Part shown: in pieces, positions 19,901 through 26,449 of the stretch
Position numbering within the stretch: the stretch's first letter is position 1
How the letters are laid out: every line of letters starts with the position of its first letter
The notes under the pieces: generated by a model
Told to the model about the DNA's origin: nothing
Databases searched by the model: none
Seen by the model: only the letters and a program-made list of their open reading frames with translations
Sequence record: DRR723986_6309
Direction: 5' to 3' (one strand)
Length of the DNA stretch: 37,288 nucleotides
Position numbers and translations under genes: made by a program

Positions 19901-20608
19901 ATGACCACCAAGCCGAAAATTGACGAGGCGCTACGCGACCAAATCCTGGCCCAGCCCGATGTGGTGCTGGAAGATGCCGATTTGATGCGCGCCTTGGTCA
20001 TGGCCAATGACCGCGCCATGGGCAGCAATATCGTGGATCTGCGCGGGCTTGCGATGGAGCGGCTAGAGGCGCGCCTGACCCGGCTGGAAGACACCCATCG
20101 CAACGTGATCGCCGCCGCCTATGAAAACCTGGCGGGCACAAACCAGGTGCACCGCGCCATTTTGTGCATGCTAGACCCGATTGATTTCGAAGGGTTTTTG
20201 CGCAACCTCGGCAGCGAGGTGGCAGCCATTTTGCGTGTGGATACCATCCGCTTGGTGCTGGAAAGCGCCCAACCAGATGGCGCGCCTGCGACCGAGAAAC
20301 TGGGCAATGTGCTGCATGTGGCGGGGCCTGGGTTTGTCGATGATTATCTGACCGGCGGGCGCGGCACGCCCGTGCGCCCGGTGGTGTTGCGCCAAATCCG
20401 CGAGGGCAGCACGGCAGTTTATGGCGAGGCCTCGGGGTGGTTGCGATCCGAGGCCTGTTTGCGGCTGGATTTCGGCAGCGGCCGCCTGCCCGGCATGTTG
20501 GTGATGGGCGCCGAAGACCCGCATCAGTTTTCACCCAGTCAAGGCGTTGATTTGCTGACATTTTTCGCAGGCGTCTTTGAAAGGGCGATGCGCCGTTGGC
20601 TGTCATGA
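19901..20608 (+). CDS. DUF484 (YigA-like) protein
   Basis: NIVDLR, coiled coil, C-terminal FSPSQGVDLLTFF; overlaps the xerC start as in the conserved yigA-xerC pair. Confidence 0.88.
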   Translation: MTTKPKIDEALRDQILAQPDVVLEDADLMRALVMANDRAMGSNIVDLRGLAMERLEARLTRLEDTHRNVIAAAYENLAGTNQVHRAILCMLDPIDFEGFLRNLGSEVAAILRVDTIRLVLESAQPDGAPATEKLGNVLHVAGPGFVDDYLTGGRGTPVRPVVLRQIREGSTAVYGEASGWLRSEACLRLDFGSGRLPGMLVMGAEDPHQFSPSQGVDLLTFFAGVFERAMRRWLS

Positions 20609-21546
20609 GCCATGTCTCACCCGGCGCCATGCAAGCCATGGCCGATTGGCTGGATCGTCAAAGCGCGCTCAAGGGCGCGGCCGACAACACAATTGCCGCC
20701 TATCGCCATGATGTAGCAGGGTTTTTGGGGTTTTTGGGCCAGCATTTGGGGCAGGCGCCGGGCCCGGGCGCTTTGGGCGGGGTGCAAACCAGTGACATGC
20801 GCGCCTGGATGGCGCATGAACGCGCGCAGGGCATCGGCCCACGCTCGCTGGCGCGCAAACTGTCTGCGGTCAAAAGCTTTATTCGCTGGCTGGCCGAACG
20901 TGACGGGTTTGAGCCCACCGCCATTTTGGCCACGCGCAGCCCGAAGTTTCAGAAAAAACTGCCCCGCCCCTTGGCTGTGGATGCCGCCCGCGCCATGCTG
21001 GACCGGGTTGAATTACAAGCCCCGGCACCTTGGGTGGCGGCGCGCGATCTGGCGGTTGTCACGCTGCTTTATGGCTGCGGGTTGCGCATATCCGAGGCGC
21101 TTTCGCTGCGCGGGGCCGATGTGCCCCTGGGCGATATGCTGCGCATCTTGGGCAAGGGCGGCAAAGAGCGCTTGGTGCCGGTTTTGCCTGCCGCCCAACA
21201 GGCCATGGCCCAATATCTGCGCCTGTTGCCACACCCGCTGGCGGCCGATGGCGCCGTGTTTCTTGGCGTGCGGGGGGGGCCGTTGGGCCCGCGCGCCATA
21301 CAAAAAGTGGTCGAACAGGCGCGCCTGCAGCTGGGCCTGCCCGCCACGGCCACGCCCCATGCCATGCGCCACAGCTTTGCCACCCATTTGCTGGATGCAG
21401 GCGGCGATTTGCGCGCCATTCAGGAATTGCTGGGGCATGCCTCGCTCTCCACAACGCAGGCCTATACAGCCGTGGACACCGCCCGCCTGCTGCAGGTCTA
21501 CCAGGCCACCCACCCCCGGGCACGCGCGACGATTTCTGAAAGGTAG
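20605..21546 (+). CDS. xerC: Chromosomal tyrosine recombinase XerC
   Basis: LLYGCGLRISE, GKGGKER, HAMRHSFATHLL, LLGHASLSTTQAY, HPRA; DUF484-xerC synteny. Confidence 0.92.
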   Translation: MSHVSPGAMQAMADWLDRQSALKGAADNTIAAYRHDVAGFLGFLGQHLGQAPGPGALGGVQTSDMRAWMAHERAQGIGPRSLARKLSAVKSFIRWLAERDGFEPTAILATRSPKFQKKLPRPLAVDAARAMLDRVELQAPAPWVAARDLAVVTLLYGCGLRISEALSLRGADVPLGDMLRILGKGGKERLVPVLPAAQQAMAQYLRLLPHPLAADGAVFLGVRGGPLGPRAIQKVVEQARLQLGLPATATPHAMRHSFATHLLDAGGDLRAIQELLGHASLSTTQAYTAVDTARLLQVYQATHPRARATISER

Positions 21547-22313: not shown

Positions 22314-25211
22314 CTAGCCCAGCGCGCTATCGCAGCGCTGGCACACGGCTGCGTGGCTGTGGCTGCCCACATCTGGCAGGATTTTCCAGCAGCGTTCGCA
22401 TTTCGTGCCATCGGCCTTTTCAAACACCACGCCCACGCCCGGCACATCGGCCATAGCAAAGGCATCCGCCGGGGCGGTGCCCATGTGCAGCGTCACCGCA
22501 GAGGTGATGCAGATATCTTCAAAGGCCACGGTTTTCAGCGCCTCTAGCAGCTGCGCATCCTCTAGATAAACCACTGGCGCCGCCTCTAGGCTGGCACCAA
22601 TCACCTTGTCGCGGCGCTGCAGCTCCAGCGCAGCTGTCACCACGCGGCGCACCTTGCGAATGCCCGCCCATTTCGCCGCCAGATCCGGGTTTTGCCAGCT
22701 GTCAGGCGTATCGGGGAAATCGTGCAAATGCACCGAGGCACCCGGCCCCTTGTGCCGCTCTAGCCAGACCTCTTCCATGGTGAACACCAAAATCGGGGCC
22801 AGCCATGTGGTCAGACGGTGAAACAAAATATCCATCACACTGCGCGCAGCACGGCGGCGCAAACTGTCGCCATCGCAATAAAGCGCGTCTTTGCGGATAT
22901 CAAAATAATAGGCCGAAAGATCAACGGTGGCAAAGTTGAACAGGGCCTGGAACACGCCTTGGAAATCGTATTCCGCATAGCCTTTGCGCACCTGGCCATC
23001 CAATTCCCACAACCGGTGCAACACCCAGCGCTCTAGCTCGGGCATATCGGCGGGATCCACCTGCTGATCGGGGGTATAATCGGCCAGCGCGCCCAGCATA
23101 AAGCGCATGGTATTGCGCAGCCGGCGGTAGCTGTCTGCCACGCCTTTGATGATCTTGTCACCGATGCGCAGATCGACGGTATAGTCAGATTGTGCCACCC
23201 ACAGGCGCAAGATATCGGCACCATATTGGTCGATCACCTCTTGCGGGGCCACGGTATTGCCCAGGGATTTGGACATTTTCATGCCCTTTTCATCCAGCGT
23301 AAAGCCGTGGGTCAGCACCCCGCGATAGGGCGCGCGCCCCTTGGTGCCACAGGCCTGCAACATCGAGGAATGAAACCACCCGCGGTGCTGGTCGGTGCCT
23401 TCGAGATAGAGATCGGCAATGCCATCAGCCGCGCCATCGGCGCGGTCGCGCAGCACGAATGCATGGGTCGAACCGGAATCAAACCACACATCAAGCACGT
23501 CAAAAACCTGCTGATATTCATCTGGGTTGGCATCATTGCCAAACACCCGCTCTTTAAAGCCATCGGCATACCACACATCGGCGCCCTCGGCCTCGAAGGC
23601 CTCGGCGATGCGGGCGTTGATGGCGGGATTGCGCAGCAAGAAATCTTCGTCGGTGGGCCGCGCGCCCTTTTTCACAAAGCAGGTCAGCGGCACACCCCAG
23701 GCACGCTGGCGCGATAGCACCCAATCGGGGCGGGCCTCGATCATGGAATAAAGCCGGTTGCGCCCGGTGGCAGGTGTCCATTTCACCAGCTGATCGATCG
23801 AGGTAAGCGCGCGTTCACGGATGGTTTTGCCATAGCTGTCTTGGCCATCCCCAACCGCACGATCGATCGCGGCAAACCATTGCGGGGTGTTGCGATAGAT
23901 CAGCGGCGCCTTGCTGCGCCACGAATGGGGGTAGGAATGTTTCAGCTTGGCCTTGCCAAACAACGCCCCTGCCCCGTGCATCGCCTTGATATTGGCCACA
24001 TTGGCGGGGCCCTCTTTGCCATCGGGCAAGATGATGTGTTGCCCGCCAAACAGGGGCAGATCGGCGCGGTAGCTGCTGTCTTCGGTGACGTTATAGGTCA
24101 TCGGCAGGCCGTATTGCAGGCCCAGCTGATAATCGTCGTCGCCATGGCTGGGCGCGGTATGCACAAAGCCTGTGCCGGCCTCTTCGGTGACATGATCGCC
24201 CGGCAGCATCGGCACGTCGTAATCCCATTCGCCCTGGCCGCCTTCGACGCCGCGATAGGGGTGGGCCAGCACCATGCCTTGCAGCGCGGCTGTGTCGATA
24301 TCGCGCAGCTTTTCAAAGCCTGTCACGCGCACGCCGGCCATCACGCTTTCGGCCAGCGAATTGGCCAGCAGCACCACCTCGCCCAGTTGGGCGCTGGAAT
24401 GCTCGTGCACCTCGGTGACGCGGTAAAGCCCATATGAAATGCCCGGCCCATAGGCCACAGCGCGGTTTTGCGGGATGGTCCATGGCGTTGTGGTCCAGAT
24501 CACAACCGTGAAATCGCCCGCATCAACCGCAGCCCCCCCCTGCACCGGGCGAAAGCGCACCCATACCTGGTGGCTGGTGTGGTCGTGATATTCCACCTCG
24601 GCTTCGGCCAGGGCGGTTTTTTCCACAGGCGACCACATAACGGGTTTCGAGCCTTGATAAAGCGTGCCGTTCATCAGCAGCTTCATAAATTCTTCGGCGA
24701 TCACCCGCTCGGCGTGGAAATCCATGGTCAAATACGGCTTGGCCCAATTGCCGGTGATGCCAAGGCGCTGGAATTCATCGCGCTGCACGTCGATCCAGCC
24801 TTCGGCAAATCGGCGGCATTCCTGGCGGAAATCGACGATATTCACCTCGTCTTTATTCTTGCCCTCGGCGCGGTATTTTTCCTCGATTTTCCATTCGATG
24901 GGCAGGCCGTGACAATCCCAGCCGGGCACATAACGCGCGTCATGGCCCAGCATTTGCTGGCTGCGCACGATGAAATCTTTCAAGATCTTGTTCAGCGCAT
25001 GGCCGATGTGCAGATGCCCGTTCGCATAGGGGGGGCCATCGTGCAAGATAAAGGGCGGGCGGCCCTGTTTTTCGCGCAGGCGGTCGTAGATGCCAATATC
25101 CGCCCAACGGGCCAGCCAGCCCGGCTCGCGCTGGGGCAGGCCTGCGCGCATGGGAAATTCGGTTTCGGGCAGATTCAGGGTGTCTTTATAGTCGGGCGTA
25201 TCGGCGCACAT
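22314..25211 (-). CDS. ileS: Isoleucine--tRNA ligase (type 1)
   Basis: DGPPYANGHLHIGH, WTTTPWT, GTGFVH editing domain, KMSKS, C-terminal CxxC...CxxC zinc finger. Start MCAD (25211) with SD AAAGGA; an in-frame upstream ATG exists at 25271. Confidence 0.98.
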   Translation of the reverse strand: MCADTPDYKDTLNLPETEFPMRAGLPQREPGWLARWADIGIYDRLREKQGRPPFILHDGPPYANGHLHIGHALNKILKDFIVRSQQMLGHDARYVPGWDCHGLPIEWKIEEKYRAEGKNKDEVNIVDFRQECRRFAEGWIDVQRDEFQRLGITGNWAKPYLTMDFHAERVIAEEFMKLLMNGTLYQGSKPVMWSPVEKTALAEAEVEYHDHTSHQVWVRFRPVQGGAAVDAGDFTVVIWTTTPWTIPQNRAVAYGPGISYGLYRVTEVHEHSSAQLGEVVLLANSLAESVMAGVRVTGFEKLRDIDTAALQGMVLAHPYRGVEGGQGEWDYDVPMLPGDHVTEEAGTGFVHTAPSHGDDDYQLGLQYGLPMTYNVTEDSSYRADLPLFGGQHIILPDGKEGPANVANIKAMHGAGALFGKAKLKHSYPHSWRSKAPLIYRNTPQWFAAIDRAVGDGQDSYGKTIRERALTSIDQLVKWTPATGRNRLYSMIEARPDWVLSRQRAWGVPLTCFVKKGARPTDEDFLLRNPAINARIAEAFEAEGADVWYADGFKERVFGNDANPDEYQQVFDVLDVWFDSGSTHAFVLRDRADGAADGIADLYLEGTDQHRGWFHSSMLQACGTKGRAPYRGVLTHGFTLDEKGMKMSKSLGNTVAPQEVIDQYGADILRLWVAQSDYTVDLRIGDKIIKGVADSYRRLRNTMRFMLGALADYTPDQQVDPADMPELERWVLHRLWELDGQVRKGYAEYDFQGVFQALFNFATVDLSAYYFDIRKDALYCDGDSLRRRAARSVMDILFHRLTTWLAPILVFTMEEVWLERHKGPGASVHLHDFPDTPDSWQNPDLAAKWAGIRKVRRVVTAALELQRRDKVIGASLEAAPVVYLEDAQLLEALKTVAFEDICITSAVTLHMGTAPADAFAMADVPGVGVVFEKADGTKCERCWKILPDVGSHSHAAVCQRCDSALG

Positions 25212-25298
25212 CTGTGGCGTCCTTTTCAAATCGGTCTGTCTGGAAGAAAACAGGGCGGCGCGGCAGTCCATACGCCTTTTCCCGGCGGCTCGATCGTA

Positions 25299-25349
25299 TC
25301 AGAGCGCCGGGCATATAATTCGAATAATGATCGCCAGTATCCGTGTCAT
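25299..25349 (-). CDS. Putative ileS leader peptide MTRILAIIIRIICPAL (16 aa, 6 Ile)
   Basis: ATG ACA CGG ATA CTG GCG ATC ATT ATT CGA ATT ATA TGC CCG GCG CTC TGA, 87 nt upstream of the ileS ATG; its 3' end overlaps a hairpin at 25281-25311. Confidence 0.8.
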   Translation of the reverse strand: MTRILAIIIRIICPAL

Positions 25350-25356
25350 GTGCGGC

Positions 25357-25385
25357 GTTATAAGCTGCTGTTTGGCAGCCGTCCA
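25357..25385 (-). promoter_or_regulatory. Sigma70-type promoter for the leader peptide-ileS transcript
   Basis: TGGACG-N17-TATAAC followed by 7 nt and then the leader ATG. Confidence 0.65.
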
Positions 25386-25414
25386 GTGGGGCTTTGGGGG
25401 GTATTTGCCGCCCG

Positions 25415-25885
25415 TCAAGCGGGGTTTGGCACGTTTATCGGGTTTGTCAGCAACAAGGGCTCTGGGCGGGTATTGGCCAGCGATTGCCCGCGCGCGTTGC
25501 GTTCGATCAGATAGGCAAACGAGCGTGTCACCTCGTGCAGGCGCGCCTCGGCCCTTTCGGCACGAGCCTGCGCGGCGGCCACTTGCTGCTTAAGGTCTTG
25601 AATTTGTGCGCGCTGATGGTGGCGTTCGGCTTTGACCATTTCCAAGGCAACCGCCAATTCAAGGTTTTTGGCCTTGGCATCATTTAAACTTTGCGACAAA
25701 TGCGCCAATTCCGCCTCGGCACTGCCAGAATAGGTGCCCAGCTTGGCCACCAAACGCAAGGCTTGCTCTAGCTCTAGCCCATCGGGCTGCACCTGCTCGG
25801 CCCCCAAGATCGAGCGCGCCATATAAGCCAAGATCGCGCGCTTGCGCCCGGTGATGGTTTCCAGCTTGTCCCAGTCGATAATCAT
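25415..25885 (-). CDS. Hypothetical coiled-coil protein, 156 aa
   Basis: GGTGG SD-like sequence, ATG start, heptad-like central region (LSQSLNDAKAKNLELAVALE...); no family recognised. Confidence 0.7.
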   Translation of the reverse strand: MIIDWDKLETITGRKRAILAYMARSILGAEQVQPDGLELEQALRLVAKLGTYSGSAEAELAHLSQSLNDAKAKNLELAVALEMVKAERHHQRAQIQDLKQQVAAAQARAERAEARLHEVTRSFAYLIERNARGQSLANTRPEPLLLTNPINVPNPA

Positions 25886-26449
25886 CGGCCACCCAGCAAA
25901 GTTTCACGACACGCAAAAACCAATTACCGGGCCAAACAGATGCACTGCGCATCTAAGCTGGCCGTTTACTGCCCAAATACCTACTGCAGGCCAAGCCGAA
26001 TTGCCAGCCTGAACCGAAAAAGACAGCCAAACCAAACGCATATAAGGGGGTGCAGTTGGCTATTTCTACAAAGCTGCCACCGGGTTTTTCCCAGCCAAAT
26101 AGGGCAAACGCGAATAAAGCCCGCAATTGGTGGCGCCCATGCCATGCAATTTAATTGGTTTTTTCAGCCCCGTTTTTAGCGCTGAAAACTATTGCCAAAA
26201 AATCCATAATTTTCAGGGCTGTTTAGTTTTTGCCAGTCAAAAACCGGTCTTCACCGGATTTACATTGGCAAAAAACCGGCGGCCGGGGGAATAACCCAAT
26301 ACCCAATTTAATTAAAAACCCCATCGCATATACGAGCTTGCCCAACACATGACCGCAGCCATGGGTTGCGCCGCGGCCCACAGTTTGGGCGCGGGCATGA
26401 TGGGTTTTGCCATGGGTAAGGGGCCGTGCAAGGCTGCGAAAAACGCCGC

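Follow-up and report, generated by a model that had tools for sequence, protein, structure and literature searches.

A conserved leader reading frame before ileS in Alphaproteobacteria as a candidate ribosome-borne sensor of tRNA-Ile charging

The leader-peptide transcription attenuators of Escherichia coli, such as pheM-pheST and ilvL (ilvGMEDA), report tRNA charging by the position of a ribosome on a short upstream open reading frame (ORF) that carries cognate codons, and pheM sets a precedent for a synthetase gene under this kind of control. In control of the ermC and cat type, the downstream ribosome-binding site is buried in a helix until a ribosome stalls in the leader ORF and opens it. 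For the isoleucyl-tRNA synthetase gene ileS, control by T-boxes is well described in Firmicutes and Actinobacteria. Here we discuss a 16-codon, isoleucine-rich leader ORF before ileS in sequence record DRR723986_6309, a stretch of 37,288 nucleotides (nt) that was analysed in full and is called the window below. An initial annotation, made from the sequence alone, had proposed a leaderless leader peptide that acts as a tRNA-Ile-sensing attenuator. Its core idea holds in a modified form: the recurring feature is an Arg-Ile codon pair locked to a hairpin, and the leader belongs to a class-wide regulon. The leader ORFs of pheM and ilvL are headed by a Shine-Dalgarno sequence (SD), contain their regulatory codons in runs and are coupled to a clear-cut terminator/antiterminator pair with a U-tract, whereas the ORF before ileS is apparently leaderless, has one invariant CGA-AUU pair at a fixed distance from a hairpin and showed no conserved terminator. 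The stall in ermC and cat depends on a drug and on the nascent peptide, whereas a hungry codon is proposed for the ileS leader.

In Sinorhizobium meliloti, trpL (rnTrpL) encodes a leader peptide and is transcribed from its own AUG onward (PMC10117765), which shows that leaderless leader peptides exist in Alphaproteobacteria. According to the parts of that work on which we draw, and unlike the ileS leader, it senses tryptophan, controls trpE(G) and releases a small RNA at its terminator; a sequence relation between the two was not seen. A small coding sequence (CDS) before ileS has also been named in an alphaproteobacterium: in Caulobacter crescentus CCNA_03934 is listed as an 'ileS leader CDS' by a study that mapped CDSs by ribosome profiling, where it served only as a negative control, and a leader of Caulobacter ilvBN is described in the same paper (PMC4117421). 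CCNA_03934 can be likened to our ORF by name and position, and the passages that mention it give no mechanism, motif or comparative analysis. The initial annotation could not say whether an attenuator had already been predicted here; apart from the Caulobacter mention, our literature search brought up no paper on how an ileS leader works in Alphaproteobacteria. The actinobacterial ileS T-box acts on translation, coupling tRNA-Ile charging to SD sequestration (PMC1262725). As far as that account goes, it shares with the leader discussed here the ileS target, the charging signal and the output that we propose, and it differs in that it binds the tRNA directly and needs no translation.

The leader ORF lies on the minus strand at 25349-25299 and, as supported by its sequence and its conservation among relatives, encodes MTRILAIIIRIICPAL in 16 codons plus TGA (ATG ACA CGG ATA CTG GCG ATC ATT ATT CGA ATT ATA TGC CCG GCG CTC TGA). 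Six of the 16 codons are isoleucine codons and all three synonyms are used (ATA twice, ATC once, ATT three times); five of them sit inside IIIRII, the cluster AUC AUU AUU (CGA) AUU AUA at 25314-25331, with an extra AUA at 25338-25340. IIIRII is the sole six-codon window with at least five Ile among the 74,542 in all six frames of the whole window, in whose 22 long ORFs Ile makes up 4.2% of codons (ATC 58%, ATT 30% and ATA 12% of Ile) and CGA is a rare Arg codon (6.9% of Arg codons). From the end of the leader ORF, 87 nt lead to the ATG of ileS (25211-25209). This gene, the putative target, occupies 22314-25211 on the minus strand, is identified by its translation and by the Pfam families tRNA-synt_1, Anticodon_1 and zf-FPG_IleRS, and has the SD AAGGA at 25220-25224. 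It is the only gene that the leader could serve, because the genes beyond it sit on the opposite strand. Upstream of the ORF, a -35-like box TGGACG (25380-25385, minus strand; CTGGAC equals TTGAC with one mismatch) is spaced by 17 nt from a -10-like box TATAAC (25357-25362, minus strand), and the 7 nt between TATAAC and the leader ATG contain no purine-rich SD. A scan of the leader for E. coli-type consensus sequences called neither promoter nor terminator; TATAAC was missed because the scan rule demands a T at the last -10 position. Both the isoleucine-rich ORF and the promoter-like boxes are thus present as initially annotated.

To see the leader in its relatives, ileS loci were collected by the N-terminus of IleRS alone, a procedure that is free of bias towards any leader pattern and that found a match in 41 of 41 relatives and retrieved 30 loci. 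Among them a short ORF is a recurrent feature, its end lying 54-93 nt ahead of ileS. Twenty-four of the 30 loci contain, once each, the invariant core CGAATTA-N4-CCCGG, which also occurs once in the 37-kb window (25307-25322, minus strand) and there comprises Arg codon 10, Ile codon 11, the first base of codon 12 and the base of a hairpin that we call P1. The spacer measures four bases in all 24 core-bearing loci, though three to five were permitted in the search. Read in frame, the core gives Arg-Ile-(Ile/Thr/Ser)-x-Pro. Around it the leaders range from the IIIRII type to forms with one or two Ile, for example MTHYVHSQRITGPAL (L003) and MTRNPAIGQRITRPAL (L009), the count per leader in relatives being 1 to 7. 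In the relatives displayed, 7-9 nt separate a TATAA[CG]-like box from the ATG. By the measure of these alignments, the conserved part is the Arg-Ile codon pair at a set distance from the hairpin, not the Ile run. The comparison of ileS upstream regions proposed in the initial annotation has therefore recovered an upstream ORF (uORF) with the exact core in most loci; of the Ile-rich leader that it expected to be conserved, the ORF with its Ile codons stands, and the run of Ile is an elaboration of this lineage. Among the remaining loci, L024 has the variant CGGATTG in place of the exact core, and the full core is missing from L015 and from the sister-family loci L026, L027, L029 and L030. L015, an ileS locus from a member of the family, keeps CGAATTA, lacks CCCGG and has CGATTCG about 20 nt later, so it may be a reduced variant with a helix between core and anti-core (see below) and no P1.

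Beyond these loci, 137 of 401 genomes sampled across the class carry the 16-base core pattern; its matches number about 196, compared with about 34 for a reversed-pattern control (hand count; G271 and G071 enter the tally solely as non-matching members). At least 43 of the 150 matches listed lie within about 250 nt upstream of an ileS match on the same strand, as judged by eye. We classified 127 motif sites, drawn from the 30 ileS loci, the window and 100 pattern sites from class-level genomes, into 63 of class A (in-frame ATG and a stop within 14 codons), 29 of class B (a stop 15-45 codons on) and 35 coding matches, the ordinary coding matches including the coding regions of Rho and IleRS. 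The uORF layout is thereby present in 92 of the 127 sites, 40 of them before ileS and 25 before a small ACT-like gene. When 185,579 species genomes were scanned independently for the exact pattern, at least 120 stretches came up. About 70 of the 80 titles listed are Alphaproteobacteria (Rhodobacterales, Rhizobiales, Rhodospirillales and Caulobacterales), and 104 of the 120 named-genome stretches listed show the uORF layout, the other 16 looking like chance matches. These 104 layouts stand before ileS (77), the ACT-like gene (18), a threonine-ammonia-lyase-like gene (1), an AAA_33 gene (1) or no recognised gene (7); Caulobacterales with the module before ileS are represented by L150, L177 and L187.

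The second commonest gene behind the leader encodes a protein of about 100 residues with the signature '...CFSV.A.ADPG.LPRVLELFAKRGLVP...' (L033:1584-1928, L101:380-679 and about 40 more loci). It has no match in Pfam or NCBIfam, and the ESM Atlas groups it with 'ACT-like domain' (PF26954) clusters at a score of 0.95, which we take as a lead only. At three of the 25 ACT-like-gene sites, L057-L059, citramalate synthase (TIGR00977, 576 bits at a cut-off of 450) starts about 410-420 nt after the core. Threonine-ammonia-lyase-like PALP enzymes, scoring below NCBIfam cut-offs, follow three sites in the two loci L032 and L038, and a DUF4743-NUDIX protein is found in eight loci, either downstream of the ACT-like small gene or in its place; single or few sites precede YggS, AAA_33 and NTF2-like genes. 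Leader-peptide attenuators are recognised in part by regulating genes in the pathway of the amino acid they sense, and the module discussed here stands before ileS, the citramalate synthase loci and the threonine-ammonia-lyase-like genes. Since the module also precedes ACT-like and threonine-ammonia-lyase-like genes, it marks, on comparative grounds, a class-wide isoleucine regulon in Alphaproteobacteria. Two arrangements were seen in passing: in L032 two leader modules, MNTTDTMRMRITGPAL and MCGSARIIHPVR, stand in tandem before one threonine-ammonia-lyase-like gene with their cores about 200 nt apart, and in the class B leader of L036 the long uORF closes with ...GHVIIIR*; this second run of Ile lies, in a different frame, across the start codon of the ACT-like gene.

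Is the ORF translated, and from a leaderless transcript? In 130 of 189 distinct leaders, an in-frame ATG follows the start of a TTGAC-like box (at most one mismatch) at a distance of 34-39 nt, and the offsets peak sharply at 35, 36 and 37 nt (37, 60 and 20 cases, with 1-14 at the remaining offsets from 25 to 59). This is the distance expected if transcription begins at the AUG. For a frame test, 155 gene-associated sites were chosen without an ORF call and every ATG 35-37 nt after a TTGAC-like box was kept. Ninety-two sites yielded 100 such ATGs, of which 96 are in frame with CGA-AUU and two fall in each of the other frames; this agreement argues for a translated, leaderless ORF. All but one of the 96 in-frame ATGs reach the core without a stop (95/96), and the distance from ATG to CGA peaks at nine codons. 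Across 191 distinct leaders, Ile occupies codons -3, -2, -1 and +2 relative to the core in 26%, 34%, 26% and 33% of cases, compared with 2-4% at codons -10 to -7, and ATT, ATC and ATA all occupy the same columns. The share of AUA among these Ile codons is 16 of 49 at codon -1 and 19 of 63 at codon +2, against 12% in the ORFs of the window, which is only suggestive of the sensing of tRNA-Ile2 or its lysidine status that was raised in the initial annotation. Class A stops (TGA 127, TAA 19, TAG 9) come 6-10 codons after CGA and fall between the arms of P1 in 148 of 155 cases. Taken together, comparative data of this kind argue for a leader ORF that is translated on a leaderless transcript.

The hairpin P1 itself (CCCGGCG-CUC / GAG-C-CGCCGGG; 25281-25311, minus strand; predicted -18.4 kcal/mol) has the CCCGG of the core as its 5' base and the stop codon of the uORF in its loop. 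It is followed by P2 (GGCGU / GCGCC; 25257-25276, minus strand; predicted -7.3 kcal/mol), which is preceded by AAAA and can be extended to GGG...CCC (25283-25253) at a predicted -10.1 kcal/mol. Both are part of the RNAalifold consensus, P2 being typical of Rhodobacteraceae-type leaders, of which 16 were aligned and in which one P2 pair covaries (CG 7, UA 6, UG 2). At stem position 7 of P1 we count CG 73, GC 42, UA 15 and UG 11, with 84% paired; sliding the partner by two bases lowers this share to 33%. In the window P1 and extended P2 compete for a shared GGG, and extended P2 is followed by the U-rich tract UGUUUUCUU (25244-25252, minus strand), a terminator-like and atypical arrangement: the P2 loop measures 10 nt and the terminator scan did not call P2. 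Tracts like UGUUUUCUU are also present in L001, L002 and L011, and most relatives have none. A U-tract after the second hairpin is thus a feature of this genus and a few other loci, not of the 16 aligned members, and P2 as a conserved terminator was discarded. The attenuator of the initial annotation survives as a conserved leader module tied to isoleucine genes; taken in the sense of a terminator/antiterminator switch, the term is not supported across the alignment.

Another possible partner of the leader lies further downstream. The anti-core GAUUUGAA (25225-25232, minus strand), found in the minimum free energy (MFE) structure, is the complement of UUCGAAUU (25324-25317) and abuts the SD of ileS. 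In the MFE fold of the window leader, uORF codons 5-11 pair with GAUUUGAA and with GGACGCC at the ileS ribosome-binding site. More generally, the 5' half of the core can pair with a downstream GAUUCG, AAUUC or GAUUUG, which is found after P1 in 30 of 82 leaders as opposed to 3 of 82 for the reversed k-mers; such anti-core k-mers number 23 in the region upstream of the leaders and 43 downstream. Of 111 ileS leaders, 28 contain anti-core k-mers (5 in the reversed controls), and in half of these hits 11-20 nt remain up to the ileS ATG, which puts them beside the SD. Leaders of the ACT-like class have the partner of the core 7-12 nt past P1, and by eye two or three of them show N4 bases that fit the bases opposite. 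An RNAduplex search for a core partner against shuffled targets was uninformative, being dominated by the GC-rich flanks (mean z -0.44; 21% of sites below -1.5).

Several other ways of reading these signals were set aside. A DNA operator formed by the inverted repeat is out in view of the covarying inner stem and of arms that can be as little as 6 or as much as 64 nt apart. Programmed frameshifting at CGA-AUU-A was suggested by the likeness of a 5-nt spacer ahead of a hairpin to known sites of this kind; on inspection, both -1 and +1 shifts bar tRNA re-pairing, and this candidate is out as well. The covariance models of Rfam 15 gave no match in 24900-25700 at E-values up to 10 and nothing relevant in 12 related loci at E-values up to 0.1, where the matches were at chance level apart from YrlA-like ones in L187. 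There, in Brevundimonas, two adjacent matches to YrlA (Y RNA-like; L187:6887-7261) reach 38-41 bits at a gathering score of 69 and lie far from the leader. For the T-box in particular, no Rfam match was obtained in 24900-25700 or the 12 other loci, and its conserved UGGN was not seen in the P2 loops of relatives. The P2 loop of the window holds an ATG (25271-25269, minus strand) that follows AAGG and shares the frame of ileS; a start there would lengthen the protein by 20 residues, and the program-made ORF list begins ileS here. An NUG after AAGGYGY recurs at this site in relatives with differing frames and lengths and is probably structural. A second conserved uORF starting from it was rejected on reading the sequences, its lengths and frames differing among relatives to the point that the one in L023 stops after two codons.

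From the conservation, the reading frame, the promoter geometry, the clustering of Ile codons, the hairpins and the link to isoleucine genes, all of which are computed or observed, we infer ribosome stalling, a direction of regulation and an output. At a probability of about 0.65, we regard the leader ORF as a translated, leaderless and ribosome-borne sensor of charged tRNA-Ile that controls ileS in cis; any single output step is more doubtful and, taken alone, would at best be a tentative proposal. The transcript would begin with the AUG or right beside it, and on it a 70S ribosome would read about nine codons until CGA is in its P site and AUU in its A site. When Ile-tRNA-Ile is scarce, it would wait at CGA-AUU or, in this lineage, at the flanking Ile codons (AUC AUU AUU, AUA), occupying UUCGAAUU and the Ile codons, while P1 begins 12 nt past the first P-site base, at the mRNA entrance. 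Twelve nt from the start of the P-site codon is just outside the point at which the ribosome helicase opens duplexes, and for this reason AUU would be the last waiting place that leaves P1 unmelted. With plentiful Ile-tRNA the ribosome would enter P1, terminate at the UGA in its loop and depart, and the RNA would refold.

What follows may differ from leader to leader. In the window, the freed leader strand would bind GAUUUGAA and GGACGCC at the ribosome-binding site and lower the translation of ileS, a pairing that a stalled ribosome would block. When the footprint of a stalled ribosome is forced to be unpaired, the predicted unpaired fraction for SD and start of ileS in the window rises from 0.34 to 0.53, the top of 32 positions, and with the footprint at the leader stop codon it is 0.35. 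An ermC-like translational attenuation is therefore our best guess for the window in this folding model. Termination at extended P2 and its U-tract after P1 melts might form a second, weaker layer: a ribosome past the core would melt P1 and favour the terminator-like hairpin, whereas one at the upstream Ile codons would not. As modelled, the SD-sequestering helix and the weak terminator-like hairpin are both plausible in the window and neither is general, so that the expression platform probably varies among members. We further consider, speculatively and with the odds rather against it, that the leader is a portable single-codon sensor of tRNA-Ile charging composed of AUG, about nine codons, CGA-AUU-A, N4 and a GC hairpin. 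The weakly decoded CGA in the P site and the hairpin at the mRNA entrance would make the arrival of Ile-tRNA rate-limiting, and one sensor might be wired to varied outputs (SD release, termination, coupling) before ileS, the citramalate synthase loci and the ACT-like and threonine deaminase-like genes.

A number of observations weigh against this picture. SD release fails as a family-wide rule: accessibility goes up in only 10 of 36 ileS leaders, with a mean of 0.48 without and 0.49 with the footprint, and strong anti-core k-mers are limited to the 28 ileS leaders mentioned above. The terminator reading flips its sign if a ribosome stalled at the core melts P1 and so lets extended P2 form by the U-tract; in the model, only a stall that does not disturb P1 gives the sign one would expect. 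The fold of the whole leader is mildly better than that of shuffled sequences (z -1.79), and 10 of 200 shuffles equal it. Further, CGAAUUA is invariant as nucleotides, rare Arg codon included, which exceeds the needs of a peptide or of a plain codon sensor; 24 of the 104 uORFs in the named set have a single Ile codon; and class B, with 29 of the 92 uORF-layout sites, has no stop in the hairpin. The relatives are not independent of each other, and the larger pattern-based samples fix the core by construction. Expression evidence comes from contigs, which can show neither 5' ends nor levels and whose gaps are not evidence: in RNA libraries of three studies they span ileS, continue into the leader and break off at 25332, 25335 and 25335, 14-17 nt inside the leader ORF, to resume at 25419 or 25501. 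The pattern hints, if weakly, at transcripts that contain the Ile codons and begin close to the leader ATG; it weakly disfavours a start downstream of the ORF and agrees with one near 25349. The contig of one run bridges 25166-25600 and with it the whole intergenic region.

How do other explanations fare with the same evidence? The simplest, a chance ORF in an intergenic region, could appeal to its being short and unannotated and to the E. coli-type scan that called no promoter. It runs up against conservation across families, the uniqueness of IIIRII in the window and the surplus of core matches over reversed ones in the 401 genomes, which make it exceedingly improbable; judged by conservation, it is excluded and the leader ORF is real. 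More serious is an RNA-only element, in which CGAAUUA together with the hairpin would form the binding site for a ligand, for tRNA-Ile or for a protein, in the manner of a riboswitch, a T-box-like RNA or a thrS-like synthetase operator, the ORF being incidental. Such an element would account for a core that is invariant in its nucleotides although Arg and Ile have synonymous codons. AUU followed by a purine recalls the T-box specifier, and the pairing of the core with downstream GAUUCG in some leaders, together with the fit by eye of N4 to the spacer after P1 in two or three, points the same way. Yet an RNA-only element needs neither the frame kept from ATG to core in 96 of 100 cases, nor the promoter geometry, nor the clustering of synonymous Ile codons, nor an in-frame stop placed in the hairpin loop; these weigh against it, as do the missing matches to the T-box or any other Rfam family and the lack of the conserved UGGN in P2 loops, and we consider it unlikely.

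The two remaining alternatives keep a ribosome on the leader and change what it does there. One retains the sensor of our preferred reading and replaces the output: the AU-rich core would be a nuclease entry site, and the mRNA would gain stability from a ribosome stalled close to its 5' end. GAAUU would suit RNase E by its motif, the core is the sole AU-rich stretch of a GC-rich leader and its invariance is not explained by coding alone, while SD release and termination are each confined to subsets of leaders. Set against this is the predicted pairing of the core in many leaders, and such an output appears distinctly unlikely. In the other, the nascent R-I-x-x-P-A peptide would respond to free isoleucine while it lies in the exit tunnel, and the ribosome would halt at or near the stop, in the way of TnaC or SpeFL, with Rho or RNA structure as output. 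It draws on the conservation of R-I-x-x-P-[AV] a few codons before a stop that is mostly UGA (127/155), and on a leader that is untranslated after P1, and could load Rho, in relatives that mostly have no canonical terminator. However, Pro and Ala/Val are dictated by the CCCGG arm of the hairpin and are hence no independent sign of peptide conservation, the nascent chain would be about 11-17 residues long with a variable N-terminus, class B sites have no nearby stop, and the clustering of extra Ile codons better suits the sensing of a hungry codon. An arrest peptide is accordingly very unlikely. A hungry-codon sensor of charged tRNA-Ile thus remains our preferred reading.

The surroundings of the leader add a few observations of their own. 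Upstream on the same strand, an ORF of 156 residues (25415-25885, minus strand, stop at 25415) matches no Pfam family, and its 3' end is covered by RNA contigs (25419-25564). Also upstream of the leader, the local GC content dips to 0.37 at 26150-26250 in a window with 63% GC overall. Downstream of ileS, on the plus strand at 20596-21543, there are an ORF of the phage-integrase family (XerC/D-like) and one for a CDP-alcohol phosphatidyltransferase.

For Alphaproteobacteria we found no description of a mechanism that controls ileS, and this leader offers an answer that can be tested. The regulon that we propose around isoleucine would comprise ileS, the citramalate synthase loci, threonine-deaminase-like genes and an uncharacterised ACT-like small protein. 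As unannotated leaderless mini-genes escape annotation pipelines, the leader family also flags such cases in sequenced genomes. CGA-AUU at a fixed spacing from a hairpin would be an unusually precise design for a hungry-codon sensor and could reveal the minimal needs for reading tRNA charging. If the sensor is indeed portable, it would do on the ribosome what the aptamer does in a riboswitch, with expression platforms that can be exchanged.

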